Source of the DNA: an uncultured Acidimicrobiaceae bacterium
Lineage (GTDB): Bacteria; Actinomycetota; Acidimicrobiia; Acidimicrobiales; RAAP-2
Direction of reading: 5' to 3'
NCBI GenBank assembly: GCA_963842415.1
Contig: CAWJGN010000003.1
Span: 225,931-289,930, forward strand
Length of the DNA: 64,000 nt
Shown piece by piece: positions 16,234 through 64,000 of the stretch (positions are counted from its first letter, which is position 1; every line of letters starts with the position of its first letter). A program made the position numbers and the translations under genes. The notes below the pieces were generated by a model. That model was not told the origin of the DNA. It ran no database searches and saw nothing but the letters and a program-made list of their open reading frames with translations.

Positions 16234-17277
16234 TCAGGAATCAGTCCGAGCCGGGGCGGCGACGCCGTTCGCGCCTGGATCATCGGCGTCAGTGCTTTCT
16301 TCGACGGAACTCAGCACGGGACCCTTGCCTGTCACCCGCCAGAGCGCGTTGGTCGCGCGAAAGAGCCGCGACCGCTTGAGCCACTTGAGGTCGTGTTGCG
16401 CTGTCTGCATCGCCGTGGTCACCGCCTGCCCCGCCCATGTCAGGCTGATGACATCCGAGACCCACAAGGGCTCTGGTGGAAGCTCCGGCTGTGACCATCT
16501 TTCGTGGGCTCCCAGGCGGCCTCGGAGAATCTCGAGTATGGGTTGCTGCTCGGATTCCAGCGTGCCCTGAGCGTTGGATCGCCGATTGTGTCGTAATTCG
16601 CCGTGCAGCACGCGTGCTGCCCGATCCGAACGATCCGCTCCGGGTGTGATGCCGTTGGCATTGAGGAATCTCACGAGGTCGTTCACCCACAGGCCCGGCT
16701 CATCGAGAACTCGTGCGTACTCGATCACCAAGACCGGCAGCCCGACCAGTGAAGCCAAGGATTGCCGGACGTAGCGGTGCCAGAGAGCGAGACTCAAGGT
16801 CAAGGGGAACTCGTTTCGCTTCTGCAACGAAAGGGCCACTTCAAGTGGGTCGCGGAAAACAAGGATTGCCACCGGTTCGCGCGGCAAGACCTTGCGCCAC
16901 AGAGGGAGCGTCAGACACAGGCGGGGATCCTTCATGACACGAGGCGGCTCGGCCGCAATTGATCGCACTAATTCGGCTGCCCGCGATCTGAGAGAACTCA
17001 TCACCTCGTCATCGGACACTTCCCAACTGTTCGGGAGGCGCGGCGGCGCCGACCACGTACCCCCGAGGTGTCGCAAAACGCTTTCGTCGAACTTGGTGAG
17101 CTTGTCGCTCTCCCAGTACCCAAGCTCGTTGTAGAGATCACCATTGATGAGGTCATCCGGAGCTGGGGCAGACAGGCCCAGCTCGGCCAAGCAATTCGCC
17201 GTTGCCGAGGTGCCGCTTCGATGCATCCCGATCACAACCGCATCACGGCTTCCGAACGCGTCCGACCCCGAGCTCAC
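16234..17277 (-). CDS. sulfotransferase family protein (intact)
   Basis: VVIGMHRSGTSATA (5'-PSB loop), VMKDPRLCLTLPLW and FRDPLEVALSL (3'-PB). Clear paralog of the C-terminal half of ORF 61146..63218. Confidence 0.8.
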   Translation of the reverse strand: MSSGSDAFGSRDAVVIGMHRSGTSATANCLAELGLSAPAPDDLINGDLYNELGYWESDKLTKFDESVLRHLGGTWSAPPRLPNSWEVSDDEVMSSLRSRAAELVRSIAAEPPRVMKDPRLCLTLPLWRKVLPREPVAILVFRDPLEVALSLQKRNEFPLTLSLALWHRYVRQSLASLVGLPVLVIEYARVLDEPGLWVNDLVRFLNANGITPGADRSDRAARVLHGELRHNRRSNAQGTLESEQQPILEILRGRLGAHERWSQPELPPEPLWVSDVISLTWAGQAVTTAMQTAQHDLKWLKRSRLFRATNALWRVTGKGPVLSSVEESTDADDPGANGVAAPARTDS

Positions 17278-17330: not shown

Positions 17331-18336
17331 TCAGCCGATGAGGCCCAACGCCTTCACCTCGTCGCGCTCTGCCAGCAACTCGTCGGTCGTGATGCCGATG
17401 CGCTCGGTCGCGAAGTCGTCGCGTGCGAAACCATCGACGACGGTCCAGTCGCCCTCCCCATCGGAGGCGACCGGGAAGCCGAACTGCAGCCCCTCCGGGG
17501 TGCCGTACTGGCCATCACTGGCGACGGCCACGGAGAAACAGTCGCCGAGCGGCGTGGCCGAGCGGAGGCTGGCCACGGTGTCGATTGCCGCCGCGGCCGC
17601 CGAGGCGGCCGAGGACGACCCCCTCGCGTCGATGATGGCGGCACCGCGCTTTTGCACCGTGGTGATGAAGCTCTCCTCGCAGCCAATCGGTGTCGGTGAT
17701 GACGTCCGTTGCCCGCTTGCCGCCGATCAGTGCGTTGGCGAAATCAGGGAACTGGGTCGCGGAGTGGTTGCCCCAGATGGCCATGTTGGTGACGTCACCA
17801 ACCAGGACGCCGGCCTTGCGGGCCAGCTGGGCCTTGGCCCGGTTCTCGTCGAGGCGCGTCATGGCGAACCAACGCTCGGCTGGCACCTCGGGGGCGTTGG
17901 ACCGTGCAATCAGGCAGTTGGTGTTGCAGGGGTTGCCCACCACCAGGATGTGCACGTCGGGGTCGGCGTTCTCGGCGATGGCCCGGCCCTGTGGCTTGAA
18001 GATGCCACCGTTGACGTTCAGGAGGTCACCGCGCTCCATGCCGGCCTTGCGCGGCACCGATCCGACCAGCAGCGCCCACGATGTCCCGTCGAAAGCCGTC
18101 TTGAGGTCGGAGGTCGCCACGATGTCGTGCACCAGCGGAAACGCGCCGTCGTCGATCTCCATGCAGACGCCCTCGAGCATCTTCATCGCCGGCTCGATCT
18201 CGAGGAGGCGCAGCACGATGGGCTGGTCCTCGCCGAGGAGCTGTCCCGAGGCGATTCGAAAGAGGATCGAGTAGCCGATCTGGCCGGCCGCACCGGTGAC
18301 CGTGACGTGGATCGGGGACTTCGATGCCGATGCCAT
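17331..18336 (-). CDS. mdh: malate dehydrogenase, one 1-nt frame disruption near 17670
   Basis: ATG 18336. [34 protein letters not shown] and IWGNHS. The C-terminal part ([17 protein letters not shown]...) is in ORF 17331..17657. The junction reads gag c ttc atc acc. Confidence 0.9.
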
Positions 18337-18410
18337 GAGCGAGGGATCCTTTCGTGGTATCGAGACGAGGCCAAGAAGCTGGAATGGGGGGAGTTTGCCG
18401 AAGCGACGGC

Positions 18411-22376: not shown

Positions 22377-23534
22377 GTGGTCCACCTGACGACGACCGAC
22401 ATGAGCCTGGCTCTTTTGCTCGGACCGCAGCTTCGTGCGTTTGCGAAGGCAGGAATGGAGGTCATCGGCGCATCGGCGGCAGGGCCGTGGGTCGACGACC
22501 TCATTGCGTGGGGCATCCGTCACGGGGCGGTCTCGCACGCCACTCGGTCAGTCTCCGTCACCAACGACGTCCTGGCTCTCGGCGAGCTCGTCGCGGCTGC
22601 GTCCCGACATGGTGCATACGCACAACCCCAAGCCCGGCGTCTACGGCCGGCTGGCGGCGCGCGTCGGCGGGTGTGCCGGTCGTGATGAACACGGTGCACG
22701 GCCTCTACGCCAGTCCGGACGACCCGCTCCTGCGGCGCGCCGTGGTCTACGGCCTCGAACGGGCGGTGTCCGTCTGCTCCGAGGCGGAGCTCGTGCAGAA
22801 CATCGAGGATGTCGCCGTGTTGGAACGCCTGTACGTGCCAGCCCGCAAGCTGCACCTGCTCGGCAACGGCGTCGATCTCGTGCGTTTCCAACCTCGACCC
22901 GCCGAGGCCTCCACCGTGCGGTAGACCCTCGGCGTGCGAGAGGACCAAGTGGTCGCCGGCGTCGTGGGCCGTCTCGTGTGGGAGAAGGGATTCGCCGAGC
23001 TCTTTGAGGCGGCGCGACGACTACGCCGCACCCGGCCCGAGGTCGTCGTCGTCGTCGGGCCGACCGACCCTGCGAAGAGCGGCAGCCTGACGCAGGCCGA
23101 CCTCGACCGTGCCCGCGCTGAAGCGGGCGTCATCTTCCTTGGCGAACGACGCGAGGTCGAATCTCTCTACCCGGGTTCGACGCGGCGCCTCGCACCGAGA
23201 GGGGTTTCCACGTGCGGCCATGGAAGCGGCCGCGTGCGGTCTGCCCATCGTCGCGTCGGACATCCGCGGGTGCCGCCAGGTGGTCGACCACGGGCACACC
23301 GGGTTGCTGGTACCCGCCCGCGACGCGGTCGCACTGGCCGACGCCATCGCCACCCTCGCCGCCGATCCGATTCGCCGGCAGGCCATGGGACGGGCCGCTC
23401 GCGCCCACGCCGAGGCAGAGTTCGACGACCGCAGGGTGATCGACCGGACGCTCGATACCTACCGCCAACTTCTCAGTGGCGTCAGCGCCACCGACATCGA
23501 CGTGGTCCTCCCGCGGGCGATCAGCCGGGGCTGA
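22377..23534 (+). pseudogene. GT4 glycosyltransferase (WbuB/EpsD-like) with three frameshifts and an in-frame TAG
   Basis: The fragments are VVHLTTTDMSLALLLGPQLRAFAKAGMEVIGAS / LRPDMVHTHNPKPGVYGRLAAR / AGVPVVMNTVHGLYASPDD...RFQPRP...VR-TAG(22922)-TLGVREDQVVAGVVGRLVWEKG / ASHREGFPRAAMEAAACGLPIVASDIRGCRQVV. Confidence 0.72.
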
Positions 23535-25008: not shown

Positions 25009-25876
25009 TCACGCTCGCACCAGGCTGGCAAAATTGGGCCACAGGCTCGGATCGACCTCTGGCATAGCCGCCGCCAGCGCCCGCACGTCCGGCGCGTACA
25101 GGTCGCGCGAGACGACGGCGCGCGTGTCGTCAGGCAGCGTGATTTGCGCCTTCCTACGGTTCACGCGCTCCGTCACCTCGTCGGGGGTGAAGGGCGGTAA
25201 GTTCAAGAAGCGGTAGGTCTTCTGGAGCTCGCCGACCGGATCCTGCACGCAGCGCTCGTACTGCAACACCAGCATCTGCTCGCGCGTGGAAATGACGTGC
25301 CCACTCGGCGAGCGCCTGACCGTAGAATCCGCACCCGAGAGCGTCGCTGTACACCTCGGCCGTCACCGCGCCCCTATGCCCGCGGTGGTGCGCCAGCCCG
25401 GACTGGAATCGCTCGACGGGATCGCGCAGCAGCACCAACAGCCGAGTCCGTGGGGCTGCGTCGGCCAGGAGCGACGGAACCCAGCCCAGATGCATGTAGT
25501 CCGGCGTCCACTCTCCGGTGACCATCCCCGCCGGGCGTGGGAACCACCCGTGGTACTGCGTGCACTGCTCGGCGCCGAACGAGCGTGCCGCGAAGCGATC
25601 GAAGAAGTGCCGCTCCTTGTGGATGTCGTCGCGCTGGGCCACGCCGGGGTGGGCGGCGATCAGAGCGAACCACCAGGTGGTGCCGGCCTTCTGGGCGCCG
25701 ATGCCCACGAAGTCGGGAGGGCCTGTGACCTCACCTGGACGCGGCTGAGGCGGCGTGAAGTCGAAGCCGTCCTCCCACGGCGCGAACCGCCCACGAGCGT
25801 GCAGGACTGCTCGCCGCATCGGCGCCGGGAGAGTCAAGAACGTCGAGCGCGCGACATCCTTCAAAGTCATACCCAA
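25009..25876 (-). CDS. sulfotransferase family protein, one frame disruption near 25283
   Basis: FVGIGAQKAGTTWW (5'-PSB) and LLRDPVERFQSGL (3'-PB). The C-terminal part (EQMLVLQYERCVQDP...) is in ORF 25009..25275. Confidence 0.75.
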
Positions 25877-31445: not shown

Positions 31446-32048
31446 TCACAGAATGCCGGGTGGCGCAATCTCTTGCCACAGGGAACCTCTGGTTACAACA
31501 GGTTCACGTGGTTGCGGATGGCTCGGGCGGCGCGGCGCCGTCCCAGTGCGCACCCAGGTCGGTAAGCCACTCCGGGAACTCGAGCGGCGGGTCCGGCAGC
31601 GGCTCGGCACGTTGCACCGCGAGGGCCGCGTGAAGGCCTCGGGGTCGTCACCCCAGCCACGAGGGTCTCCCATCATCACCTCGAACATCACCGCTCCTTG
31701 AGGACCGGCGACCACCGAGCCGAAAGCGGCGCCGAGTGGGAGCTCGACGTGGGTCCCGGGTTCGCAGCGGTGCTCTCCGAACGAGACCTCGCCCTCCAGC
31801 ACGAAGACGACGTTCGGTGAGAAGTGACCGTGACGGCGCACCACCATCCCCGGGTCGTAGCGGGCGTAGATGGTGAGGTACTGGGGATCGGGCGAGAAGG
31901 CCAGCCACTTCTCCCAGACATGGGCGACCGAGCCGTCGGCGTTGCGTTGGGCCTTGATGGCCTGCCAGGGAACGTCCGGGTCGTCGAGGTGGCGAAAGGA
32001 GGGCTCGAGGCCCTCGCGCTTGGGTGACGGCGGCACCAGCTCGGGCAT
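31446..32048 (-). CDS. cupin-domain protein; C-terminus ambiguous
   Basis: RHGHFSPNVVFVLEGEVSFGEHRCEPGTHVELP is cupin-like. After about 31630 a second frame gives a more protein-like tail (AALAVQRAEPLPDPPLEFPEWLTDLGAHWDG, TGA at 31504). Confidence 0.5.
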   Translation of the reverse strand: MPELVPPSPKREGLEPSFRHLDDPDVPWQAIKAQRNADGSVAHVWEKWLAFSPDPQYLTIYARYDPGMVVRRHGHFSPNVVFVLEGEVSFGEHRCEPGTHVELPLGAAFGSVVAGPQGAVMFEVMMGDPRGWGDDPEAFTRPSRCNVPSRCRTRRSSSRSGLPTWVRTGTAPRRPSHPQPREPVVTRGSLWQEIAPPGIL

Positions 32049-32127
32049 GCCAGAAATGTACGCCGATCCATCTTTCCCTGCACAGAGTCATGTTTGGACG
32101 GCACGCGCCTCGAGCACTGGAGCCGAC

Positions 32128-32325
32128 ATGTCCACCGTACCCCCCGAGGAGGAGTTTCCGCTCATCATCTCGGTCGACGACCACATCCTCGAACCTCGCG
32201 ACCCGTGGGAGCGCGAGGTGACCAATACGTCACGCGCTGGATGCACTCTTGGGTGTCAACTCAGATCTCGCGACTTGGTTCTGACATACGCTGCGAAGGA
32301 TTACTTGAACGCCGACAGCCGGTAA
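32128..32325 (+). pseudogene. 5' fragment (about 31 aa) of an amidohydrolase gene, truncated where GC content drops
   Basis: MSTVPPEEEFPLIISVDDHILEPRDPWEREV is the typical Amidohydro_2 N-terminus (xIISxDxHxxEPxDxW). The rest of the ORF is unrelated, AT-richer sequence. Confidence 0.5.
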
Positions 32326-32585
32326 GATTTGCCCGCCTTGGTTGGTGCGGCGCCCCCTCCTCAGACCAGGGAGGAGCAGGCGATACGGCGAATCTGGGCA
32401 TGCTCACCACCAGCGCTTGGCGCTGGCGCCTAGCTTGGTGTTGTCCGGGAAGGGAGTCCCCTCAGGGATGGTCTGGCTGGTGGCGGGCTTAGGGGCTACG
32501 CGAACAGAGGCTCGCTTCTTATCGCTGCACTCGCGACCACCGCTTGTCGGGTGGCCTCCCCGAGGGACCCTGGGACAGTCCATAG

Positions 32586-34077
32586 TTGAAAAGAGGCTTG
32601 TTGGTGGGACTTGAGCGGCGAATCAATAGGCGGAGCGGCACGCGTGTCGGTCGTGAGCTAACCCAGCCGTGCGCTACCCAGAGGCGGCGAGCGGCCGCCT
32701 CGGCCGCCTTCCTGAAGGGTGACAGCTCGGACATCGACAGCATGATCGAGCGTGCTTTGCGGCTCGCCGGTTCCGCCGGTGAATCTGGCCGACCGCTTCT
32801 GGGCGAATGGATAACCCCCGGTGAGCGCGTCTTCGTTCTCCCCAACTTGGTGATGCATCGTCGGATTGATCGGGGCGAAACGATGCCGAGTTTTCTGGCG
32901 AAGTGCACGAACGGGTCGATCGTCAAACCCCTCGTCGCACACGCCGTCGAGGCGGCAGGTGACAGCCGATTGGTCTCCGTGGGTTCGGCGTCGCTGCAAG
33001 CATGCGACTATGCCGCTGCCGCCCGCGAGGCCGGCTTCACAGATAGCCCGTCGGAAGACTTGACTGCCACCCCCGCAGGAATCGATCCGATGGACCTTCG
33101 CAGTGTTGCCACAGTCTGGAGCAAGTACGGTGCACTCTTAGAGCGGCACTCGAGGGATGTTCCCACCGTGGAGGTGGACTTGGGTTCACTGAGCTTCCTC
33201 GACGAGCTCTACCTGAGGAAGACCAGCGTCGATTTCCGAGTGGGTGACTACGACCCTGTCGAGACATTGTCGTTTCACTCGAAGGGAAGGCATATTTATA
33301 CGATTCACCGTGATGTGCTCGAGTCTGATGTGATCATCAGCGTTCCAAAGCTCAAGACTCACGAGAAGGTGGGCATCACGTGCGCGCTCAAGGGAACCAT
33401 CGGAACGGTTACCCGAAAGGAGTGCCTTGCGCACTACCGCCACGACAATCGGAACGGTCGCGGTGATGAGCATCCTCCTGGGAACCCACTTCGGTCGCTT
33501 GCGTCCGAGATCTCGGATCGGTCGTCGGCTGCACCACAAACACGGCTTGGTAACGGAGCGAGAATCGTCGGGAAGTCAGCGTTTCGACTTGCTCGGATCG
33601 GACATCACGGAATCATGGGTGGCGCCTGGGCCGGAAACGATACGGCGTGGCGCATGGCTCTCGATGTCGCGCGGATCCTCAGGTTCGCGCGTCCTGACGG
33701 ATCCATTGCAGATACGCCCCAAAGATCGCACCTCGTACTCGTAGATGGCATAGTCGCCGGCGAGGGAGAAGGGCCCTTGAGGCCATCACCGGTCTTGGCC
33801 GGCACCGTCATCTTCAGCGACGACGCAGTTGCCGCCGATGTCACATGCGCCCGAATTGATGGGATATGAGCCAGATCGCATTCCCTTGCTCTCGTATGCG
33901 ATGAACCCGTCTATAGATCTGCCCCTTCGTAGCTGGACTTCCTGCAGCGTCCGGTGGGACGAGAAGACCTTCCCCGATGTCGGCGCCGTCCCTTCGTTGT
34001 TAGGAAGGCCCTTCCGACCGCCAAAGGGATGGACCGGAGCTATCGAGCGATCCGCAGAAGAGGCCCACAATGGGTGA
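32586..34077 (+). CDS. DUF362 domain protein, one frame disruption near 33853; start uncertain
   Basis: ISVPKLKTHEKVGITCALKGTIG and LVLVDGIVAGEGEGP. The C-terminal part (ELMGYEPDRIPLLSYAMN...) is in ORF 33829..34077. 47% GC counted for 33241-33300. Confidence 0.65.
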
Positions 34078-34201
34078 GCGCTGGGCTCCGAGCCGGCTGG
34101 CGTGGCGTCCGTTGCACGCTTCGGTGCTTCCGAGGTGAGAATCATGAAACTCCTACGATCTTGGCTTGAGATTTTGACGACCGAAGTCAAGACGACGTCT
34201 C

Positions 34202-35537
34202 ATGGATCACGCTTCGGCTGTCCTTAAGGACGTCATCGTGACCGTTGCCGGAGTGATGCTGTTCAGGCGACGTCGAGGTAGGGAGTTCCGAGAATCGCTG
34301 ATCCGTTGGAACTCGATGAGGGAGCTACCGAAAGAAGATCTCCTCAAGATCCAGACCGATCGAACCCACGAGATCATCGCTCATACATCGACACGATCGC
34401 CGTACTACGCGGCCAAATACGCTCAGGTCTCATCGAGGGAACTCGCGGACCTCCCGATTCTGGAGAAAGAAGAGCTCAGGGCGCACATCGAGGACATCGT
34501 CATCCGTGGAAGTGCGCAAACTTCGAAAGTGTTACACGGGTGGTACGACGGGAAAGTCGCTGGTCGTCTTCAGCTCGGCAGACAGTGATGGAGAGCGGTT
34601 CGCTCGACAAGAGGCCATGTGGGCGATGCATGGCTACAAGCTCGGTCGCGATCGCATCGCCTGGTTCTCGGGTCGTCATCTGATCGGTGCCAACGACGTT
34701 TCCGCTCACCGGTTCTGGCGGAACAACTTCCTCGAGCGCGTTCGGTACTACAGCACCTTCCACATGGCTCCGAACACTCTGCACTACTACGTAGAAGATC
34801 TCGCGAAATTCCGGCCTCGATTCCTGAACGGCTTCCCTTCGGCCATCGGTGAATTGGCGAGCTTCATTGAAATGACCGGAGCAACTAGAACGTTCAATCT
34901 CCAAGCGATCTTTACGACCAGTGAGACCCTAACCGGAAGCCAGCGCGACGTTATGGAGCGGGTATTCAATTGTCCTGTTCGCAACCAGTACGCATCATCA
35001 GAAGGTGCTCCGTTCATCATGGAGTGCCAACAAGGTCGGCTGCACATCGATGTGACAAGCGGTGTGTTCGAAGTCATCGGCGCCGATGACCAACCGACCA
35101 GCGATGGCGAAGTGCTCGTGACGAGCTTCTACATGAAGCAGACGCCGCTGATCCGCTATCGGATTGGGGATCGGCTCGCTCTCTCGCACGAGCTTGGATG
35201 TCCGTGCGGATGGGATACTCCGTTGGCCGCCTCTATCGAGGGGCGCGAATCTGACTTTCTCGAGATACCAGGCCGAGGAAAGATCTTCGCGGCACAGATC
35301 GGCGATTGCGTAAAGCACCTTCATTGGGTGATCGCTTTTCGCTGCCGCCTGCAAGATGGACGGTTACGTATCGAGATCGTCGCCGATCGGGAGCGATTCG
35401 AGAAAGAGGACCTGTCGACATTCCTGAGAAACATCCATGAGAGAATGGGAGATATTCCAGTAGACCTGGAATATCTCGACGAGCTGCCACGACTTCCCAG
35501 TGGAAAACGAAGCGTTATCGCGTCAATCAATCAATGA
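34202..35537 (+). CDS. CapK/PaaK-like adenylate-forming enzyme (F390 synthetase family), one frame disruption near 34518
   Basis: SPYYAAKY...LPILEKEELR, then YTGGTTGKSLVV (AMP P-loop), TSETLT, NQYASSEGAPF, IRYRIGD and LPSGKRSVI. Confidence 0.72.
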
Positions 35538-36715
35538 GCACCCTCGACGAACACCGGGAACCACGACCGGGCGCGGCCGAAGGGCGGCCGGCTCGCGTTC
35601 TACTCCTCATCAAGTGCCTTGACTACGGGGGTGCAGAACGGCTCCTTGTCGACATGGCGGCCCTAGGAGATCGCACGTCATTCGAATATGAAGCCGCGTT
35701 CGTGCTCAGCGAAAGACACCGTCTGGCCGATGAAATGCGATCGGCGGGTACTCCAGTCCATGCGCTTGGAGCACGCGGCGACTGGGATCTCAAATGGACG
35801 GTGGTCCTCAGACGGCTACTCGTCGAGCGTCGCTACGACCTAGTCCACTTTCATTTACCCTACGCGGCGTCCCTGGGCAGGTTGGTCGTCCAGAGCCTGC
35901 CCAAGGGCTCCCGGCCGAAGCTCGTGTATACACAGCACTGCACGTGGGACGAGATGGAAGCTCCTGTCCGGATCCTCAATCGAGCGACCATCGGCCTCGA
36001 CGATGCCCTGGTGACAGTTTCTGAGGCCTCACGCCAAGGACTCCCGAAAGTCCTCCGACGTCGCGCCCAGGTGGTCATTCATGGAGTGGACGTGTCGCGG
36101 TCTGCCGAAATGCGTACCGACAGGGAGACGATCCGTCGAGAAGTTCGCGATGAGCTGGGAGTCCCAGACGACCACGTGCTGGTCCTCGCGGTCGCCAACC
36201 TTCGTCCGGAGAAGGGATATGACATCCTCCTCGAGGCAGCTCGAATACTCCTGGCAGGCGGCGCACCGGTCTCGTTCGCATCGGCAGGTTACGGCCCCCT
36301 CGCCGAGGAGTTGAATCGGATTCATAGCGACCTCGGCCTTGGAGATCGGTTCAGGTTCCTGGGTCCACGCAGCGATGTCCTACGGCTCATGACCGGTGCC
36401 GATGTTTTCACGCTGGCGTCCCGCCACGAAGGCCTGCCCGTAGCCGTCATGGAAGCAACAAGCGCCGGCTTGCCGCTCGTTCTGACCACGGTGGGTGAGA
36501 TCCCCGGTCTATTCACTGACGGGGTTGACGCCTTGCTCGTCCCGCCCGGACGCGCCGACATGCTGGCGACGTCGTTGGAGCGGCTGGTACGGAATTCCAC
36601 CGTCCGTGAAGAGCTCGGGAAGGCCGCTCTCGACCGGAGCGCTATCTTCGACGTGAGATCTGCAGCGCACGAGGTCGAAGACATCTACCGTAGGCTTCTC
36701 TCCGAAGTTCCGTGA
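35534..36715 (+). CDS. GT4 glycosyltransferase (intact)
   Basis: RVLLLIKCLDYGGAERLL, NLRPEKG and HEGLPVAVMEATSAGLPLVLTTVGEIPGLF. ATGA overlap with the preceding gene. Confidence 0.85.
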   Translation: MSTLDEHREPRPGAAEGRPARVLLLIKCLDYGGAERLLVDMAALGDRTSFEYEAAFVLSERHRLADEMRSAGTPVHALGARGDWDLKWTVVLRRLLVERRYDLVHFHLPYAASLGRLVVQSLPKGSRPKLVYTQHCTWDEMEAPVRILNRATIGLDDALVTVSEASRQGLPKVLRRRAQVVIHGVDVSRSAEMRTDRETIRREVRDELGVPDDHVLVLAVANLRPEKGYDILLEAARILLAGGAPVSFASAGYGPLAEELNRIHSDLGLGDRFRFLGPRSDVLRLMTGADVFTLASRHEGLPVAVMEATSAGLPLVLTTVGEIPGLFTDGVDALLVPPGRADMLATSLERLVRNSTVREELGKAALDRSAIFDVRSAAHEVEDIYRRLLSEVP

Positions 36716-54454: not shown

Positions 54455-56268
54455 CTATCCCGAGACCGTCTCCACGGTGAGGGTGGTGGAGCTCTTGACC
54501 GTCTTGTAATTCGAGTCGCCCGAGTAGACCGCCTTGATCCTGTACGGCGAGTCGCTCGTCATCAGCGCATCCGGGCCGATCTTGCACTTCCCCACGCCCT
54601 GGTTCTTCAGCGTCGTGGAAATGTTGATCACATTGTCGGTGCCGATCGAGGCAGGTGAGCTGGTCCCCGGAGGCGCCGGTGATCGTGTACGTGACCGTCC
54701 CGCTCGGCGCGCCCAGCACATTGCTAGTTGACGGCGAGTCGGCCTGAATCGCTGTCCGGATCCTCAGGGCCGTCCCTTGCTTGGCCGGGTTGCGGCTCAG
54801 AACGAGCTGCATCGAGCTGGCAACCTGGAAGACATCGATGTGCCCCACGGAGGACGAGTTCGCCGCCTGGTCCGTGTCTCCCAGGTAGGACGCCGAAACG
54901 TCGTAGAAGCCGGGATGGAGGCCCTCAGGTATCGAGATGGTGACCTTGTTCTCGCTTTTCTTGATGTCGGTCCTGGTCGGGCGTCGGAAGGTTGAGGTTC
55001 CCGCCCAGCGTGCCGGTCTGTGGGGTGCACTGGGTCTGGCTGGTCGGGCACACTGCCCACTCCAAGAGGCCGGTCGGCGCACCGGTGCCCGGCGCCACGG
55101 TCTTGACGGTGACGCTGAACGAGAACGCCTGCGAGAACACGAGCCCACCAGGGACCCCCGACAGCACCACGTTGCTGGGAGCCCGGTTGACCGGCTGGAC
55201 GAGCGAGGCGGCAACGGGAGTCCTGAAGTTGGGGTCCTGGAGCGTCGCCGTCACGGTGTAGGTCAGCGACGTCGCCTGGAGGCCCTTGGGGAAGTTGCAC
55301 ACCGCGCTCGTACCTGAGAGCGGGACGGTGTCGCCGCCTTGACACGTGACCACAGTTCCATTGGATCCGACCACAGAGAAGACGATCGACCCCATCGGCG
55401 TGCCCGCGCCGGGCGGGTTGATGCCGGTGATGGTTGCGGTGAAGGACACGGGCTGTCCCGAGTCGGGCGTCGAGCTCGCCGAACTCGCGAGCGCAATGGT
55501 GGCCACGGCTCGGTCAACTGTTTGGGTCAACGTTCCGGTGCTCTTTGCATAGTTGGTATCGCCGGAGTAGGACGCGGTCACGGCGTAGGTCGAGTTAGCG
55601 GCTAACAGGCCAGCGCCAACTGAGCACTGGGCCATGTCGCTGCTGTCGAGCGGCTGGGTGTCGCCGGCGTCGCACGCGATCGAAGCCCCTCCAGTTCCGG
55701 TGATCGAAAAGGTGACCATGCCGGTCGGCATACCTGTCGAGGGGCTGTTCGGCGCCACGACAGCTGTGAACGTGACCGGCTGGCCCGTGACGGTGGGATT
55801 CGACGCGGACGTCAGCGACGTCGTGGTCCGCCCCTTGTAGATGGCCTCGGACAGCGTCCCGGTGCTTGCGGTGTAGTTGGCGTCACCGGAGTAGACCGCC
55901 GAGACCGAGTAGGGCGAGGCGTCCGCAAACAGACCGGCACCAATAGTGCACTGTGCGCTGCTGCCCGGGCTGGCCGGCCCTAGTGCGATCGTGTCCCCGC
56001 CGCCGCAGACAGGAGTAGAGGAATCGGCTCCGGTGATGTCGAAGGTCACCGTGCCCGTCGGCGTCTGATTCAGACGAGTCACTGTGGCCGTGAAGGTGAT
56101 GGACTCGCCGGTGACAACGGGCGCCGTCGTGGCTGTGACAGTCGTGGTGGTGCTCTTGGTCGTGGCCGCCGCCGGTGACGCGACGAGCGCCAGGCTCAAC
56201 AAAGCCAAGGCCGTACCAACCGCAGCCACTCGAAGTGCAATTCTCCGCACAATCTTTCCCTTCGCCAT
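54455..56268 (-). CDS. secreted protein with five bacterial Ig-like repeats, frame disruptions near 54975 and 54652
   Basis: ATG 56268 is preceded by AGGGAGG. Signal peptide RIALRVAAVGTALALLSLALVASPAAA. Roughly 105-aa repeats of the type SxNPxxxGQPVTFTAxV...GxPTGxVTF...C...YxVxAxYSGDxNYxxS. Confidence 0.7.
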
Positions 56269-56369
56269 GGAAACCTCCCTCACGATCATTGTTGATCACG
56301 CCCGCGACGGCGCGCGGACACTTCGCCTACTTCGCCGATTGGCGAACCGCCTGATTCGCTTGCTCTTCC

Positions 56370-57034: not shown

Positions 57035-57719
57035 ATGATCGAAGGTTACGGTATGCCCCCCGCGCAGGGCACGGTGAGGGTGGCGACGAGGCGCGACGTG
57101 CCTGCAGTCGCAGCGCTGCACGGAGTCGCGATCGGTGAGGGTTTTCTGTCTACTCTCGGCGACCGGTTTCTGTCCCGCCTCTATTCGCGCATCGTCGCGT
57201 CGTCCCACGGATTCCTCCTCGTGGCAGACAGTCCCGAGCTGTCGGTGGGACAGAAGTCGGGTCTCGCGGGCTTCGTCGCCGGTTCCGCTGAAGTCGGTCG
57301 GCTCTACCGCGAGTTCCTGGTGCGAGATGGGCTCTCTGTCGCGGTGTCCTCGACTACGAGACTGCTGCGATCGTTGCCTCGGGTGATCGAGACCCTCCGC
57401 TACGGGGCAACCGACGAGCCTGCTGGAGACGGACCATCCTCAACCGCTGGAGCACAGGGTCCCGAGACGGAGTTGCTGGCCCTCGCAGTGGATGGTGCCG
57501 AACGCCGACGTGGTGTCGGGACTGACCTCGTGGAGGCCTTCTTGCGAACCGCCACGCGCCACGGGGTCGTCTTCCGCCCGCGTCGTCGTCGGTGGGGAGA
57601 ACCACAGCGCGATCGCGCTGTACAGCCGCGCCGGCTTCAGCGAATCCACCCGACTCGAACTGCACTCCGGAACCGAGTCGCTCCTCATGCGGGTCGGTCT
57701 GCACCGCGCACTGCAGTGA
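57035..57719 (+). CDS. GNAT family N-acetyltransferase, one frame disruption near 57572
   Basis: VRVATRRDVPAVAALH and LALAVDGAERRRGVGTDLV. The second frame carries ARVVVGGENHSAIALYSRAGF and ends at TGA 57717-57719. Confidence 0.62.
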
Positions 57720-57734
57720 CGGAGAACCTCGCGC

Positions 57735-58687
57735 GTGGCCGCCGGCGCGTTCGTCATCTCGATACTCGCGACCCCGTTGGCGGCGCGGTTCGCCGTACGG
57801 GTGCAGCTGGTGGATCGGCCCGGGGCTTTGAAACCTCAAGCCCACGCCACGCCCTATCTGGGCGGTGTCGGGCTCGGTTGTGGCGCCGCAGTGGGCGCGG
57901 CCGTGCTCGACCCCTGGCTGTTGGTGCCGTTGGGAATGGCGTTGGCACTGGGCACCGCAGACGATGTCCGACCACTGGCCCCCTTCACCCGGGTGCTGGG
58001 GACATTGGCGACCGGTCTGGTCCTTGCCGCGGTCATCTCGACGCGTTTCGGTGATGCCGGGTTCCTCCTCGTGCCCGTGGCATCCATTGCCCTCGTCAAC
58101 GGTTTCAACCTGCTCGACGGGCTGGACGCGCTCTGCGGCTCGGTGACCCTCATCGGAGCCGCAGGCTTCGCTTTCCTCTTGAGCGGAGACGCCCGCGGCT
58201 TCGCTCTGGCGCTGGCCGCCGCCGCCGCCGCGTTCTTGTTCTTCAACCGGCCGCCCGCCAAGGTGTACCTCGGAGACGGCGGCGCCTACTTCGTGGGCAT
58301 CTCCATGACCGCGCTGCTCGCGACCGCTTGGGCTCCTGGAGAAGGTCGAACGACGGGAGTCGGGGCTCTTGCGCTCGTGGCTCTTCCCCTCGTCGAGGTC
58401 GCCCTGGCACTGTTCAGGCGAGTGGCGCTCCGGCCGCTCGCTTCTCTCTGGTGATCGCGATCATCCCTACGACGTCTTGGTCCGGTCGGGGTGGAGCATC
58501 CCTCGGACGGTCGCCGCCTACGCCCTGGCCGAACTCGTCGCCCTCGCTCTGGCAGTTCTGGCCTCACATCTGAGAGTCCAGCTGGCGTGGGCGGTCGTGG
58601 GCGTCACGGCAGCTCGGCCTTCTTGCTGCCGGCCTCGGGGCAGGAGGATCTCCGTGTTCGAAATCGATCGACAAGCTCTCGACGTGA
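57735..58687 (+). CDS. WecA/MraY-family polyprenyl-phosphate sugar-1-phosphate transferase, two frame disruptions near 58425 and 58610
   Basis: VDRPGALKPQAHATPYLGGVG, VNGFNLLDGLDAL and LGDGGAYFVG. Then GDRDHPYDVLVRSGWS. The last frame ends in a TGA overlapping the next GTG (GTGA at 58684-58687). Confidence 0.7.
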
Positions 58688-59820
58688 CCCAACGCATCTA
58701 CCTGTCGCCGCCCGACGCTGGAGCCCTCGAACGTGAGCTCTTGCTGGACGCCTTCGACTCGAACTGGCTCGCACCGCTGGGACCCCACGTCGATCTCTTC
58801 GAACGCGAGCTGGCCGAACGAGTCGGTCTCGAACACGCCGCCGCACTGTCCAGCGGCACGGCGGCGCTCCACCTCGGTCTCCTCCTGGCCGGCGTCGAGG
58901 CCGGTGACCAGGTCATCGTGCCATCGCTGACGTTCGTCGCCACGGCGAACGCCGTCCGCTACCTCGGAGCTGAGCCGGTGTTCGTCGACTCCGATCCGAA
59001 GAGCTGGAACATGGACGCCTCACTGCTGGCCGACGAGCTCGCCAAGCGAGCCCGTCGCGGCGACCTGCCCGCCGCCGTGGTGAGCGTCGATCTTCTCGGT
59101 GGATGCCCCGACTACGACGTCATCGAGGCTGCTTGTGATGAGTTCGGGGTCCCGCTGGTGGAAGACGCGGCCGAAGGGCTCGGAGCGTCGTATCTCGGAC
59201 GCCCGGCGGGTTCGTTCGGCGAGTGCGGCGCCTTTTCCTTCAACGGCAACAAGATCATCACGACGAGCGGAGGCGGCATGCTCGTCTCGAGGTCAGCCGA
59301 ACTCGTGGCGACCGCCCGGTTCCTGGCGAGCCAGGCGCGCGAGCCCGCAGTGCACTACGAGCACGAGCAACTCGGCTACAACTACCGCCTGAGCAATCTG
59401 CTCGCCGCGCTCGGCCGCGGGCAGCTGCGTGGCCTCAGCGAACGGATCGCGCGTCGCAGGGAACTGAACCAACGCTACCGGGAGGCTTTCGAGGCCGTGG
59501 ACGGCATCGACATGATGCCAGTCGGCCGAGGCGTGGAGCCCAACTACTGGTTGACGTGCATTACCGTCGATCCGTCTCGCGCCGGGGTCGGAAGAGAGCA
59601 CATACGACTGGCGCTTGAGTCCTTGAACGTGGAGTCGCGACCGGTGTGGAAGCCGCTCCATCTTCAGCCGCTCTACCGCGGCGCACGAGTCGATCGGCGG
59701 AAAGGTCGCCGCGCAAATCTTCGAACATGGACTGTGTCTACCCAGTGGCACGGCCCTCTCGTCGCCGACCAAGAACGCATCATCGCCGTCGTCCTGGACC
59801 TGACCCGCCGCGGACGTTGA
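58684..59820 (+). CDS. DegT/DnrJ/EryC1/StrS (PglE/EpsN-like) sugar aminotransferase with a compensating pair of frame shifts (about 59695 and 59760)
   Basis: IYLSPPDAGALERELLLDAFDSNWLAPLGP, SSGTAALHL, FSFNGNKIITTSGGGML (PLP-Lys region) and GYNYRLSNLLAALG. The segment GGKVAAQIFEHGLCLPSGTAL is readable only in a shifted frame. Confidence 0.82.
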   Translation: MTQRIYLSPPDAGALERELLLDAFDSNWLAPLGPHVDLFERELAERVGLEHAAALSSGTAALHLGLLLAGVEAGDQVIVPSLTFVATANAVRYLGAEPVFVDSDPKSWNMDASLLADELAKRARRGDLPAAVVSVDLLGGCPDYDVIEAACDEFGVPLVEDAAEGLGASYLGRPAGSFGECGAFSFNGNKIITTSGGGMLVSRSAELVATARFLASQAREPAVHYEHEQLGYNYRLSNLLAALGRGQLRGLSERIARRRELNQRYREAFEAVDGIDMMPVGRGVEPNYWLTCITVDPSRAGVGREHIRLALESLNVESRPVWKPLHLQPLYRGARVDRRKGRRANLRTWTVSTQWHGPLVADQERIIAVVLDLTRRGR

Positions 59821-59824
59821 CCAC

Positions 59825-60865
59825 ATGTCCACGTCACGCTCCGATCAGCCCCACTTTGCCTATCTCTTGCTGAGCCACAAGAACCCCCAGGCAGGTCGAA
59901 GCGCTGGCGCGCCGGATCCTGGACTTGAGCCCGCACGCGCAGATCGTGGTGCACCATGACTCACGCGCGGCCGACCCGCCCTGGGGTGGGCGCCCGTCGG
60001 CACCAATCCACCTGGTCGAGCGGGGGCGAGTGTCGTGGGGGGACTGGTCGATGATCGAGGCCACCTTGCGGATGGTTCGCTACGCGGTGGACCGACTCGA
60101 TGCCGACTGGTTCGTGCTGGTGTCGGGCGAGCATCGTCCCGCAGTTGACCTTCACCAGTGGGAAGCGGACACCGCGGCGTCGGGAAATGACGCACTGCTC
60201 GGTGCCGAGCGGCTTCCCGACTCGTCTTCGCTTCGGCTCAGCCGATTTCGAGCGCAATCAATACCTCGCACGAAGTCGTCACCGCTGGCGGCTGTTGAGC
60301 GCGACCGCGTCGAGCGGCTGTCCATCGCGCCATGGGCCTCCTGATGAAGATCAGTACGCGTACACGACCGATCGTGTCGATCGAGTACGTCCATCGGCGC
60401 GACGCCTGGGCCGTTGGTTGGCGCCGGCGCTCACGCCCGGAGCGAGGCTGGTCCTTCTACCGGGGCTCGCAGTGGTTCGCGTTGAACCGGCGGGCAGCGA
60501 AGGCGGCCTTGGCGATCGATCCGGACGTCGCCGAGTGGTTCGAGCAGAGCTGGATCCCCGACGAGGCGTACCTGCAGACGGCACTCCGTCGAGTGCCCGG
60601 GCTCAAGATCGCGGACTCACTGACCACGTTCGACCTCGACACGCCGGCGGAGCCCTATCCCGGATGGAGGCAGCTCTCGCCCCGAGACGTTCCCGCCGTC
60701 TTGGCCTCGGGACTGCCGTTCGCGCGAAAGGTCGACCCCGCCGCACGCCCGGAGGTCGTCGCGAGTATCGACGCGGCCGTGGACAGGCAGCGGGCAGGCG
60801 GGGAAAGTCGCACGACAGCCACGACCTCTCGCGCGCTGGAACACCAGCGTCGGGAGCGGACATGA
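59825..60865 (+). pseudogene. GT14 (Core-2/I-Branching, Branch domain) glycosyltransferase paralog with about 4 frame disruptions
   Basis: Collinear with 61146.. : FAYLLLSHKNPQ / QVEALARRILDLSPHAQIVVHHD...VSWGDWSMIEATLRMVRYA...DWFVLVSGEHRP / RLRFGSADFERNQYLARSRHRW / ...IVSIEYVHRRDAW...YRGSQWFALNRRAA...IPDEAYLQTAL. Shifts are near 59887, 60215, 60300 and 60335. Confidence 0.6.
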
Positions 60866-61000: not shown

Positions 61001-61105
61001 ATGTCCAGCGATAAAAGCGCAGGCTCGGCCGACGCCGTCGCCGCTCGCTGTGCCTACCTGATCCTCTCCCACAAGAACCGGTCCGTAGTCAGGAGAGGAC
61101 CGTGA
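61001..61105 (+). pseudogene. orphan duplicated 5' stub of a GT14 gene (34 codons)
   Basis: MSSDKSAGSADAVAARCAYLILSHKN then stop. CAYLILSHKN mirrors FAYLLLSHKNPQ (59850s) and FAYLILTHKDPQ (61215s). Confidence 0.4.
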
Positions 61106-61145: not shown

Positions 61146-63218
61146 GTGATGCCACGCCACGACGGGTCCCGCTCGGTCACGAGGGAAGAGGAGCCGGCCG
61201 GCGAAGAGATCGGCCCATGTTTCGCCTACCTGATCCTGACCCACAAGGACCCGCAACAAGTAGAGGCCCTCGCCGCCCGGATCCTCGAATTGAGCCCGCA
61301 TGGTCAGGTCGTCGTCCACCATGACCTCGCTTCTGACGACCTGCCGTGGGGAGGTCGGCCGCCGAGCCGCGTCCACTTCGTCGAGAGGGATCGAGTCCTC
61401 TGGGGCGACTGGTCGATCGTGGAGGCCACTTTGCGCTTGGTCCGCTTCGCGCTCGAGGAACTGCACGCTGACTGGTTCGTCGTGTTGTCGGGTGAACACT
61501 GGCCGGTGGTCGATCTCCGCGCGTGGGAGGACGCATCGGTGGCTTCGGGGATCGACGCGTTCGTCGAGGCGGACCCCCTGCCGAAACGGCTGCGTTTCGG
61601 CAGAGCCGATGAAGGCGCAAATATGTATCTGTCACGGTGCATCCATCGGTGGGTGACCGTACGGCAGCCTCGCCTGGCAGCCGCCCACCGTGCCGTCGGC
61701 GGGGTCTTTAAGCTCGGCCTCTACATCGCGCCGATACTGACCGTGGAGTACTCCCACCGGCGTGAATCGTGGTTCTTCGGCCGCCCTCGGGCGCGTCGTC
61801 TCCTGAAGAACTGGGTGTTCTACAAGGGCTCCCAGTGGATCGCATTCAACCGTCGGGCCGCTGAGACCATCCTTCAGGCGGACCCGGCTGTGACCGATTG
61901 GTTCCGCCGCGGCCACATTCCCGACGAAACGTATTTCCACACGGTCTTGCGCCACGCCGAGGATCTCGTCGTCACCGCTGACGTCGTGACCTATGTTCCG
62001 CTGGGGTCGACACCGCCGATACCGAAGTGGATGGTCCTCAAGTTCGAGCATTTGCCGGCCGTGTGGAGTTCGGGTGCAGCCTTCGCACGCAAGGTCGACC
62101 TGGCCAACCGGCCTGAGGTCATCCGTGCCATAAACGCCGAAGTCGACCGGGGCCGGGCGGCCGGGGGACTCGGTCGCCCTCACGCACACGATGCGAAGGT
62201 GGACGAGGAGGCGCTGGAGCGAGGCTCACGGCCCAACCCGCCCGCATGCGTTGCCATCGTCGGCATGCACCGCAGCGGCACGTCCGCCACAGCCGGGTTG
62301 CTCGTCGGGTTGGGTCTGGCCGGTCCGAAGGTCGAGGACCTCGTCCCGGCCAACGAGGGCAACGAACGTGGTCATTGGGAGAGCGAAACGGTGCACATGT
62401 GCAACGTGAAGGTGCTGGCCGCACTAGGAGGCGACACCTACGCGCCGCCACCGCCACCGCCGGCGTCCGGCTGGGAGAACGACACCAGCTTCGACCCGAT
62501 GCGGCTCGAGGCGGCGCGATGGTTCGAATCCACCTCAGACGGCAGGCCGCTCGTCTTGAAAGACCCACGGTTGTGCATCACCCTCCCCCTGTGGAAGACG
62601 GCGCTCCCCGATCCTCTGCCGACTCTCTTCGTGCTGCGCGACCCCTTGGAGGTGGCCCGTTCGCTGCAGGCTCGGGACAAACTGCCCATGGTCCTCGGCC
62701 TGGCGCTCTGGGATCGCTACATTCGCTGCGCCGCCCTGAGTCTCGAGGGTTCGCCGACTCTCGTCGTCGACTACGCCGCCATGCTCGAGGATCCGATCAA
62801 GTGGAGCGAGGTCATCTGCGGATACCTCGAGGAGCAAGGCCTGCACCTCGGCGCTGATTCGAGGAGCGCCGCCCTGACCTTCCTCGACACTGGACTCCGG
62901 CACCAGCGGGGCGACGATTCCGACTACGAGCCGCTCGCCGCAGCGCACCGTGAGGTCCATGCCATCCTCTCGGAGCGGGCCGGAACTCACTCCACCTGGG
63001 AGCCACCCGAGCTGCCCCCCGCTCCTCCCTGGGCGGACTACGTACTTCAGCTGCGGCGCCAAGTCGTGCTGACCCGGCACGAGCTCTACTGGACCCAGTC
63101 GTCGCGCGTCTTCCGAGCCGCCAGCGCGCTGTGGCGCCTGACGGGCAGCGGCCCGCGAGCCTCGCTCGCGCAGTTCGGAATGGACCAGGAAGAGACAGAC
63201 CCCGACCCCTGGTTCTGA
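61146..63218 (+). CDS. fusion ORF: N-terminal GT14 (Branch) glycosyltransferase domain plus C-terminal sulfotransferase domain (690 aa, uninterrupted)
   Basis: N-terminal half: FAYLILTHKDPQQVEAL, VLWGDWSIVEATLRL, DWFVVLSGEHWP, YKGSQWIAFNRRAA and IPDETYFHTVL. C-terminal half: VAIVGMHRSGTSATA, LKDPRLCITLPLW and LRDPLEVARSL, collinear with the stand-alone sulfotransferase 16234..17277. Confidence 0.72.
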   Translation: MMPRHDGSRSVTREEEPAGEEIGPCFAYLILTHKDPQQVEALAARILELSPHGQVVVHHDLASDDLPWGGRPPSRVHFVERDRVLWGDWSIVEATLRLVRFALEELHADWFVVLSGEHWPVVDLRAWEDASVASGIDAFVEADPLPKRLRFGRADEGANMYLSRCIHRWVTVRQPRLAAAHRAVGGVFKLGLYIAPILTVEYSHRRESWFFGRPRARRLLKNWVFYKGSQWIAFNRRAAETILQADPAVTDWFRRGHIPDETYFHTVLRHAEDLVVTADVVTYVPLGSTPPIPKWMVLKFEHLPAVWSSGAAFARKVDLANRPEVIRAINAEVDRGRAAGGLGRPHAHDAKVDEEALERGSRPNPPACVAIVGMHRSGTSATAGLLVGLGLAGPKVEDLVPANEGNERGHWESETVHMCNVKVLAALGGDTYAPPPPPPASGWENDTSFDPMRLEAARWFESTSDGRPLVLKDPRLCITLPLWKTALPDPLPTLFVLRDPLEVARSLQARDKLPMVLGLALWDRYIRCAALSLEGSPTLVVDYAAMLEDPIKWSEVICGYLEEQGLHLGADSRSAALTFLDTGLRHQRGDDSDYEPLAAAHREVHAILSERAGTHSTWEPPELPPAPPWADYVLQLRRQVVLTRHELYWTQSSRVFRAASALWRLTGSGPRASLAQFGMDQEETDPDPWF

Positions 63219-63251: not shown

Positions 63252-64000
63252 TTAGGCCGTGACGACGGCATCGGGTTGTGGACTTCCGTCGTCGCCGGCT
63301 TCCTCACCCCGGTCGGCAGCGGAGAACCAATCGACCGTCGCCTTCAGCCCGAGTCGAAGAACGGTCGGCGCCAGGCCAGGGAAGAGGCTCCGCAGCCTGG
63401 TCGAATCGGCCTGGGAGTCCGGTACGTCTCCGGCTCGGGGGGGGCCATGGCGTTTCGGGAGTGGCCCGCCGAGCAACGACTCGAGCTCTGACACGAGCGA
63501 CAGCAGGGTGGTCCGGGTCCCGAACGCAAGGTTGACCGGTGAATCAGCGGTCACCCGGCGCCCGAGCGCGTCGGCAATGACGGCGGTCACGTCCTCGACG
63601 TAGGTGAAGTCCCGCGTCTGCGTGCCGTCGCCGTCGATCGTCAACGGACGGCCCGCGAGCGCCGCGCTCACGAAGGCGGGTATGACCGCAGCGTACGCGT
63701 GGTCGGCTCGTTGCAGCGGGCCGAACACGTTGAAGAACCTGAACGCGAGCACTGGAAGCCCAAACGAGCGTGCGTACGCCAACGCGTAGCTTTCGGCGGC
63801 CAGCTTGCTCGCGGCATACGGACTGACCGGCCGAGTGGGATGGTCCTCCGACGTCGGCAGTGTCACTCCCCTGCCGTACACCGACGACGAGGACGCCACG
63901 ATCACGTGGGCACCGTGTGCCCGCGCCGCCTCGAGCACCACCACCGTACCCGTGGCGTTGGCGTCGTGACTGGCGCGTGGGTCTACGAGCGACCTCGCGA
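63252..64000 (-). CDS. NAD-dependent epimerase/dehydratase (extended SDR), 5' part outside window
   Basis: SSSSVYG, SPYAASKLAAE (YxxxK), FRFFNVFGP and TRDFTYVEDV. The frame is open to the window end. Confidence 0.8.
   Translation of the reverse strand, partial: ARSLVDPRASHDANATGTVVVLEAARAHGAHVIVASSSSVYGRGVTLPTSEDHPTRPVSPYAASKLAAESYALAYARSFGLPVLAFRFFNVFGPLQRADHAYAAVIPAFVSAALAGRPLTIDGDGTQTRDFTYVEDVTAVIADALGRRVTADSPVNLAFGTRTTLLSLVSELESLLGGPLPKRHGPPRAGDVPDSQADSTRLRSLFPGLAPTVLRLGLKATVDWFSAADRGEEAGDDGSPQPDAVVTA

Follow-up and report, generated by a model that had tools for sequence, protein, structure and literature searches.

The GT14-sulfotransferase reading frame

The window analyzed here, a stretch of 64,000 nucleotides from an uncultured Acidimicrobiaceae bacterium (contig CAWJGN010000003.1), carries on its plus strand an open reading frame (ORF) at 61146..63218 in which a GT14 glycosyltransferase domain is fused to a sulfotransferase domain of the type that uses 3'-phosphoadenosine 5'-phosphosulfate (PAPS). 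Counted from a GTG at 61146 the ORF has 690 codons, and both the ORF list and a scan of the frame gave a sole in-frame stop, at 63216, with none internal, as an initial annotation of this DNA had described. The likely start is the ATG at 61149, which would give a protein of 689 amino acids (aa), because a database copy with 100% identity (P0001, 689 aa) begins one codon after the GTG and the close orthologues P0002 and P0003 have the N-termini MPRQ and MPHH. Every motif quoted in the annotation was located in the translation: AYLILTH (27-33), WGDWS (86-90), LSGEHWP (114-120), GSQWIAFNR (228-236) and PDETYFHT (259-266) in the N-terminal half, and GMHRSGTS (373-380), KDPRLCITLPLW (472-483) and RDPLEVARSL (498-507) in the C-terminal half. 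The annotation was likewise correct that the alternative frames have no stop across 62160-62250; this span is open in all three forward frames, and the closest alternative-frame stops lie at 62131/62407 and 62114/62855.

An AlphaFold2 model of the protein, built from a 94-sequence alignment, has a mean predicted local distance difference test (pLDDT) score of 88.4. Values are mostly above 90 in the GT14 domain and low only at both termini and at residues 342-359. These residues fall in the interdomain linker (aa 336-366, 62151..62243, +), a disordered and variable stretch of ~30 residues in which pLDDT is below 50 at 342-353 and 357-359. No membrane helix was predicted when hydropathy was used to look for a membrane anchor (maximum 19-residue hydropathy 1.43); the protein is therefore predicted to be soluble and cytoplasmic, a location where UDP-sugars and PAPS are available.

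The GT14 (Branch) domain (aa 26-335, 61221..62150, +) was recognized by Pfam, by its predicted fold and by a GT14 profile. Branch (PF02485) matches with 65.3 bits against a curated cutoff of 23.4 (E=8.4e-18). In a Foldseek comparison of the model with the PDB, the top 17 matches were all murine C2GnT-L or human XT1 (E 2.7e-11 to 9e-10), with template modeling (TM) scores on the target of ~0.57-0.62 for C2GnT-L and 0.29-0.33 for the longer XT1 chains. A profile restricted to GT14 matched the PDB sequences of XT1 (E=4.9e-9) and C2GnT-L (E=5.8e-5) with the catalytic residues aligned: Glu261 ('ipDEsy') pairs with 'PAES' of XT1 (E529 by spacing) and 'PDE' of C2GnT-L (E320), and the FARK sequence pairs with the FARK of XT1 (R598/K599), 69 residues past E529 in that protein. 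In the XT1 structure, E529 (E320 in C2GnT-L) is the catalytic base (PMC5992326; see also PMC7185993), and R598/K599 bind the diphosphate of UDP in place of a metal ion (PMC5992326). Glu261, within P259-D260-E261 (61920..61928, +), is thus the predicted catalytic base, and F313-A314-R315-K316 (62082..62093, +) contains the predicted Arg-Lys pair for the UDP diphosphate; E261 is invariant in 28 fused-type orthologue sequences and the Arg-Lys pair in 42 of 42 GT14 sequences. Every mark of family membership that could be tested, in sequence and in the model, places the N-terminal domain in GT14. A subgroup of stand-alone bacterial GT14 proteins has Gln for the predicted catalytic Glu, reading IPDQ rather than IPDE (L024 9971-10960, L026 2073-3062, P0243, P0245, P0247 and P0254).

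The C-terminal domain (aa 367-670, 62244..63155, +) was assigned to the PAPS-type sulfotransferases from paralogue identity, a family profile and its fold. Residues 371-683 are 42% identical (E=1e-73) to, and collinear with, a stand-alone sulfotransferase of 347 aa at 16234..17277, which lies on the minus strand, a correction to its placement in the initial annotation. A profile of 53 family members matched the PDB sequences of SULT1A3 (E=2.6e-5) and the OLS sulfotransferase 4GOX (E=7e-4), as well as SULT1A1, StaL and the CurM sulfotransferase, and the alignment spans the 3'-phosphate-binding (PB) motif ('lvlRdPleVArS' versus 'VARNPKDVAVS' of SULT1A3). A profile of the whole fusion had no match at E<=1 among PDB sequences, where the domain-specific, more diverse profiles did match. 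A model of this domain alone (pLDDT 89.1) retrieved sulfotransferases as the top 33 and as 43 of the top 50 PDB matches, among them 4GOX (the best, E=4.8e-6), 4GBM, the tyrosylprotein sulfotransferases TPST1/2, 3RNL, Teg14, Stf9, StaL, SULTs and Stf0, with TM-scores of 0.43-0.52 on target length.

Sulfotransferases are defined as a class by a Lys or Arg in the 5'-phosphosulfate-binding (PSB) loop (RXG in PF13469/NodH), a Ser in the PB helix and the fold, and a PB motif of the RXXXDXXXS type has been described for them (PMC11625862). The putative PSB loop GMHRSGTS (aa 373-380, 62262..62285, +) has the RXG form in R376-S-G378, and R376, S377, G378, T379 and S380 are invariant in the 53 family members. 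The putative PB motif R498-DPLEVAR-S506 (62637..62663, +) was placed from the SULT1A3 alignment and from conservation; R498 and S506 are invariant in the family, as is KDPR (472-475). E412, in HWES (62379..62381, +), is invariant in the same 53 members and is a candidate for the sulfotransferase base, bases of the Glu or His kind being known in these enzymes (PMC11625862).

Assignment of the two halves by Pfam, which the annotation had proposed as a check, came out as expected for Branch and short of the cutoff for Sulfotransfer_3 (PF13469), for which the fusion protein scores 19.2 bits against 27. The same model gives 27.6 bits for the 42%-identical stand-alone paralogue and 48 bits for another sulfotransferase of the same operon in the related locus L006, and several orthologues of the fusion carry a precomputed PF13469 match. 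No NCBIfam model matched either the fusion or the stand-alone sulfotransferase. Apart from the Pfam threshold, all of the marks of the class that were tested in sequence and model point to a PAPS-type sulfotransferase, so that the family assignments first made for both halves are upheld. Fused and stand-alone sulfotransferases also share a C-terminal motif, SR(V/L)FRA..ALWR(L/V)TG.GP (window 63100-63180, aa ~628-666), in a region that forms an amphipathic helix (hydrophobic moment 1.43) with no counterpart in solved sulfotransferase structures and that may be a membrane-surface or oligomerization element.

The fusion is shared by relatives. Assemblies from NCBI, ENA, JGI and Logan yielded 26 full-length orthologues of 655-694 aa at 51-91% identity, and fused ORFs were present in each of the loci L001-L008, including a metagenome-assembled genome (MAG) built from short reads with megahit (L006). 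The annotation had named a stop and restart between the halves in related genomes as evidence for two genes: none was found in relatives at 68-91% identity, short-read assemblies included, or in two at 51-53%, but several loci at ~51-61% do have one. Among fused orthologues the linker varies by in-frame indels only, and the only indels that separate the ORF from that of L003 are in frame, amounting to 9 nt within the linker and 3 nt within a run of prolines. The ratio of nonsynonymous to synonymous substitution (dN/dS) is 0.12-0.18 in the GT14 half, 0.15-0.24 in the sulfotransferase half and 0.3-1.2 in the linker, indicating that both domains are under purifying selection and that the linker is relaxed. 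Judged from these comparisons, the fusion is real, conserved and maintained by selection.

Operon context and predicted function

The cleanest operons of this family, in L006 and L007 (6022-16123 in the latter), contain in order genes for a GNAT acetyltransferase, a WecA-type transferase, a DegT aminotransferase, GT14a, GT14b, the GT14c-sulfotransferase fusion, a sulfotransferase-GT2 protein and a sulfotransferase. Divergent from these, on the opposite strand, are genes for an epimerase, a UDP-sugar 6-dehydrogenase, a nucleotidyltransferase-like protein and a PglF/CapD-type 4,6-dehydratase. The operon of the window clade is shorter, consisting of GNAT, WecA-like, DegT, GT14a, a relic of GT14b and the fusion, followed by the divergent epimerase.

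In the window the first of these genes encodes the GNAT acetyltransferase (57035..57740, +; PF00583), the frame of which is broken near 57554 by a +1 insertion. It is followed by a polyprenyl-phosphate sugar-1-phosphate transferase of the WecA/MraY type (57735..58454, +; PF00953 E=4.8e-21) that is truncated by frameshift, with +1 insertions at 58424 and 58612; its orthologues in L003, L006 and L007 have 322-325 aa. The longest ORF for the DegT/PglE-type sugar aminotransferase spans 58369..59820 (+; PF01041 E=1.1e-87), and since its orthologues have 378-442 aa, the true start probably lies later than 58369. The upstream GT14 paralogue at 59826..60865 (+), which had been taken for an ORF, is not intact: compared with intact orthologues, such as those of 345 aa in L003 and L008, its frame is broken by three +1 insertions (59889, 60220 and 60301). 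The L003 copy is ~88% identical to the window in nucleotide sequence, and its protein is 68-71% identical to GT14a of L006 and L007. This gene is orthologous to GT14a, which is in no case fused with a sulfotransferase; this bears out the suggestion that fusion is specific to the downstream copy. Between the two, 105 nt at 61001..61105 (+) encode MSSDKSAGSADAVAARCAYLILSHKNRSVVRRGP*, which resembles the N-termini of GT14b in L006 and L007 ('GGCAYLVLSHKNPSQVE') and is a relic of the N-terminus of a middle paralogue, GT14b; L003 has the same relic, and GT14b, deleted from the window clade, survives intact in L005-L007. Downstream, the NAD-dependent sugar epimerase/dehydratase (63252..64000, -; PF01370 E=1.3e-38) is divergent from the operon and runs past the window end; its orthologue in L006 lies at 16989-17981.

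The explanation that we consider probable is that the fusion is a soluble, cytoplasmic GT14 and sulfotransferase enzyme of a glycan-assembly operon in soil Acidimicrobiaceae. In Pgl and related pathways, primers of the 2,4-diacetamido-trideoxyhexose (bacillosamine) type are usually made on polyprenyl phosphate by a dehydratase, an aminotransferase, an acetyltransferase and an initiating transferase acting together. From the content of the operon (GNAT, WecA-like, DegT, GT14 and sugar-nucleotide genes), assembly and sulfation of a lipid-linked glycan in the cytoplasm is predicted. The WecA-like transferase would probably start the glycan on polyprenyl phosphate. The first sugar, for which the PglF-like dehydratase, DegT and GNAT would be responsible, is probably an N-acetylated 4-amino-4,6-dideoxy-hexosamine (bacillosamine-like). 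The GT14 domains would then attach further, beta-linked sugars to the primer, and the sulfotransferase domains would sulfate the lipid-linked intermediate ahead of export. Within the fusion, the GT14 domain would act as an inverting, metal-independent GT-A glycosyltransferase, with Glu261 as base and Arg315/Lys316 holding the UDP diphosphate, and would transfer a sugar from its UDP-activated form to the lipid-linked oligosaccharide in beta linkage. The sulfotransferase domain, binding PAPS through its RSG loop (373-380) and R498/S506, would sulfate the same intermediate on the newly added sugar or a neighboring one, and the fusion would pair one glycosyl transfer with one sulfation. Donor sugar, acceptor, reaction order, lipid carrier and destination of the glycan are as we infer them here. 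Going further, it is conceivable, if rather doubtful, that as many as three GT14s and as many as four sulfotransferase domains cooperate in the cytoplasm to make, on a bacillosamine-type primer, a glycosaminoglycan-like surface polymer that is beta-linked and multiply sulfated, possibly with uronic acid, the fusion channeling each new sugar into sulfation.

Several observations weigh against assigning the fusion to assembly of a sulfated lipid-linked glycan. The functions given to the fusion and its orthologues derive from sequence and predicted structure, and to our knowledge no sulfated glycan is known from Acidimicrobiia. The annotated ORFs of the window and the related loci that were examined yielded no flippase, polymerase or ligase gene. 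They yielded no genes for PAPS synthesis either, no dedicated search having been made for these. For the sulfotransferase half, the PF13469 score is below its cutoff and NCBIfam is silent, and the TM-scores of both domains against their nearest solved relatives, C2GnT-L in the case of GT14, are moderate. Finally, compared with L003, which is ~89% identical to the window over this locus, the window has eight +1 insertions (57554, 57732, 58424, 58612, 59685, 59889, 60220 and 60301), all upstream of the fusion ORF, and these hit GNAT, the WecA-like gene, the tail of DegT and GT14a; if they are real, the glycan pathway may be decaying in this genome.

The acceptor could also be something other than a lipid-linked envelope glycan, namely a protein that is O- or S-glycosylated and then sulfated, a glycolipid as with Stf0/NodH, or a small natural product. 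GT14 includes the peptide-serine xylosyltransferase XT1 (PMC5992326), and the folds nearest to the C-terminal half are those of the CurM and OLS sulfotransferases, which modify polyketides, and of the tyrosylprotein sulfotransferases. Next to the operon no gene for Wzx, Wzy or an ABC exporter could be found, and directly upstream the opposite strand encodes a conserved, possibly secreted Ig-like (Big_3_5) protein. We nevertheless regard such an acceptor as unlikely, since the operon starts from a polyprenyl-phosphate sugar-1-phosphate transferase accompanied by genes for amino sugars (PF00953, DegT, GNAT, PglF-like and UDP-sugar dehydrogenase), a set that is a hallmark of lipid-linked glycan assembly. 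A lipid-linked glycan could still finish on protein, so that this alternative partly overlaps the explanation that we favor. The Big_3_5 repeat protein is conserved at this position (54925-56289, -, in the window and 2634-4430, -, in L007); it is possibly secreted or at the surface and might be a target of glycosylation.

Less probable still is that the fusion is real and one of its domains is catalytically dead, serving as a scaffold or substrate-binding module like COSMC in GT31. The tandem paralogy of GT14a/b/c and of several sulfotransferases leaves room for sub-functionalization, and some GT14 paralogues of relatives (L024, L026, P0243 and others) have Gln for the catalytic Glu, but none of E261, R315 and K316 varies within the fused lineage, where conservation of the RSGTS loop, R498 and S506 is also complete or at least 90%, the two rows without them having no sulfotransferase domain. 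In addition, dN/dS is similarly low in both halves.

Frame-breaking insertions and the origin of the fusion

The eight +1 insertions upstream of the fusion either are locally clustered assembly errors or reflect a recent decay of the operon outside the fusion. Inspection of the sites for homopolymers and methylation motifs showed no homopolymers and a loose excess of GCGC/CGCG neighbors, with several sites adjoining such a sequence. Elsewhere in the window, a malate/lactate dehydrogenase gene (17331-18414, -) is split over two frames, with positions 1-68 of Ldh_1_C in one and 72-172 in the other, which points to indel errors in the assembly. It could likewise be suspected that long reads prone to error left an indel of one base in the assembly and so merged two overlapping genes into the fusion ORF: there are the frame-breaking insertions between 57554 and 60301 and the split housekeeping dehydrogenase, the linker is open in all three frames, and in relatives the GT14 and sulfotransferase genes are separate and overlap by 4 nt. 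Such a merger is extremely improbable. It is ruled out as the cause of the ORF by the same fused frame in over 25 assemblies that are independent of one another and come from four sources (short-read L006 and JGI and Logan contigs among them), by linkers that vary through in-frame indels only, by zero out-of-frame indels in 61146-63218 relative to L003 and by the low dN/dS of both halves beside a relaxed linker.

The separate genes of relatives point instead to how the fusion arose. In several more distant Acidimicrobiaceae loci, among them L016, L017 (9917-11005 and 11002-12003), L018 and L021, GT14c and the sulfotransferase are adjacent genes with overlapping stop and start codons (ATGA/GTGA, within GCATGA, GAGTGA or GCGTGA), and their domains are ~51-61% identical to those of the window. 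Because the split genes overlap in this way, and because in alignments the linker of the fused proteins corresponds to the C-terminal tail of the separate GT14 followed by the N-terminal head of the separate sulfotransferase, the comparison indicates that the fusion is a derived, clade-restricted state that came from a translationally coupled gene pair, by way of a small frame change that removed the ATGA/GTGA overlap between the two genes.

Of the 1.84 billion cluster representatives in a library, P0031 alone spans both domains, so that GT14-sulfotransferase proteins correspond to a single representative at 50% identity. For the sulfotransferase family by itself, over 15,000 representatives of many architectures matched at E<=1e-10; long multidomain proteins account for many of those with the best scores, and GT2 or GT4 is annotated on many homologues. 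Other joined proteins occur in the same operon family, including GT14-GT14 tandem proteins of ~665 aa (P0026, P0027 and P0265) and a sulfotransferase-sulfotransferase-GT2 protein of 1017 aa (L011 11796-14849), and sulfotransferase-GT2 proteins of ~700 aa are common. Stop-start overlaps may make fusions frequent in these operons, and some of these other joins, being from long-read MAGs, could be indel artifacts.

Known systems and other features of the window

Among characterized proteins, C2GnT-L (GCNT1; 2GAK, 2GAM and 3OTK) and human XT1 (6EJ7 and related structures) share with the GT14 half the GT-A fold, the Branch domain and the Glu base of the P-D/A-E motif; the Arg-Lys pair of the XT1 FARK sequence is present as well, and by homology the mechanism would be inverting and metal-independent. 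Identity to these solved GT14 enzymes is only 13-18%. In contrast to the Golgi enzymes, the fusion has no signal anchor and no Xylo_C domain, is bacterial and operon-encoded, and has a C-terminal sulfotransferase added; the conserved disulfides of Golgi GT14s (PMC4202792) are not expected in a cytoplasmic protein.

The sulfotransferase half shares the Arg-type PSB loop (RXG), the R...S motif of the 3'-phosphate site and the fold with NodH, Stf0, Stf9, the CurM and OLS domains and the TPSTs, and the CurM and OLS sulfotransferases are likewise domains of larger multidomain enzymes. Identity is ~13-17% to 4GOX, 4GBM, the TPSTs and 2Z6V. The fusion differs from these proteins in its extra C-terminal helical region (aa ~590-666) with the SRVFRA..ALWRLTG motif, both absent from the solved sulfotransferases, in its presumed glycan acceptor and in being joined to a glycosyltransferase. 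On these comparisons the fusion would behave as a GT14 enzyme combined with a sulfotransferase of the NodH/Stf0 type.

Comparable in architecture are bacterial sulfotransferase-GT2 (~700 aa), sulfotransferase-GT2-GT4 (900-1190 aa) and GT2-sulfotransferase proteins, which belong to the same sulfotransferase family (31-44% identity to the window domain) and also pair sulfation with glycosyl transfer in one chain; the sulfotransferase-GT2 type sits directly downstream of the GT14c fusion in L006 and L007. In these proteins the partner is GT2 or GT4 rather than GT14, the sulfotransferase is usually N-terminal, and the distribution covers many phyla. Our literature searches found no description of a bacterial GT14-sulfotransferase fusion, of a characterized bacterial GT14 or of a characterized glycosyltransferase-sulfotransferase fusion of any kind, and nothing relevant on sulfotransferases of Acidimicrobiia. 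The initial annotation, which knew of no characterized bacterial polypeptide that adds a sugar and sulfates, agrees with these searches but overstated the case: as an architecture such polypeptides are not rare, since fusions with GT2 or GT4 are common in databases.

The same annotation likened the protein to bifunctional glycosaminoglycan enzymes, a comparison that holds as an analogy. The animal N-deacetylase/N-sulfotransferase NDST1 combines two sequential glycan-modifying activities, one of them PAPS-dependent, in one chain (PMC10864358), but it has no glycosyltransferase domain, is a Golgi-lumenal type II membrane protein and acts on a completed polymer, and homology to the fusion is limited to the sulfotransferase fold. 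Sulfotransferases within glycan-assembly clusters, as here, are encoded by the synechan xss cluster of Synechocystis and the proposed, unverified wps-1 cluster of Actinoplanes missouriensis, where sulfation is presumed to occur on the cytoplasmic lipid-linked repeat unit, as we propose for the fusion. Their sulfotransferases are stand-alone and of other subfamilies, the glycosyltransferases of wps-1 are GT2 and GT26 rather than GT14, and both clusters have Wzx/Wzy genes, none of which was found at the fusion loci.

The fusion joins two well-known enzyme families, and our understanding of GT14 and of the sulfotransferases is unchanged by it; it is of interest mainly as a lead to a pathway for sulfated glycans in soil Actinomycetota that has yet to be studied, and less as a mechanistic surprise. 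A review counted only six bacterial genera as producers of sulfated glycans (PMC11625862). Sulfation of bacterial glycans may be far more widespread than documented, because the sulfotransferase family is so large, with many multidomain members and GT2 or GT4 on many homologues. The fusion and its split orthologues link one particular glycosyltransferase to one particular sulfotransferase, and the linked pair marks a compact operon suited to heterologous expression. If active, a soluble, disulfide-free bacterial GT14-sulfotransferase could aid the chemo-enzymatic synthesis of sulfated oligosaccharides. Were the glycosaminoglycan-like polymer outlined above to prove true, its pathway would be among the first for sulfated glycans shown in Actinomycetota and would employ a family, GT14, not otherwise characterized in bacteria as far as the literature was searched.

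Further genes for glycan modification lie in other parts of the window. The stand-alone sulfotransferase (16234..17277, -) belongs to a second cluster (8934-17277, -) that also encodes a DUF347 membrane protein, a GT2_4 protein, two methyltransferases, a GFO/IDH/MocA oxidoreductase and a sulfotransferase fragment at 9901-10305, perhaps continuing to 10852. Another sulfotransferase (Sulfotransfer_1/3; 25154-25876, -) adjoins a PMT_2-type GT-C protein, and a 141-aa ORF at 23109-23534 (+) matches only the C-terminal end of the GT4 domain Glycos_transf_1, consistent with a truncated or frameshifted glycosyltransferase. Finally, the G+C content dips to 0.58-0.62 at 2001-6000 and 32001-36000, compared with ~0.65-0.70 elsewhere, and these stretches, which hold methyltransferase genes and a DUF362 gene, may be acquired islands.

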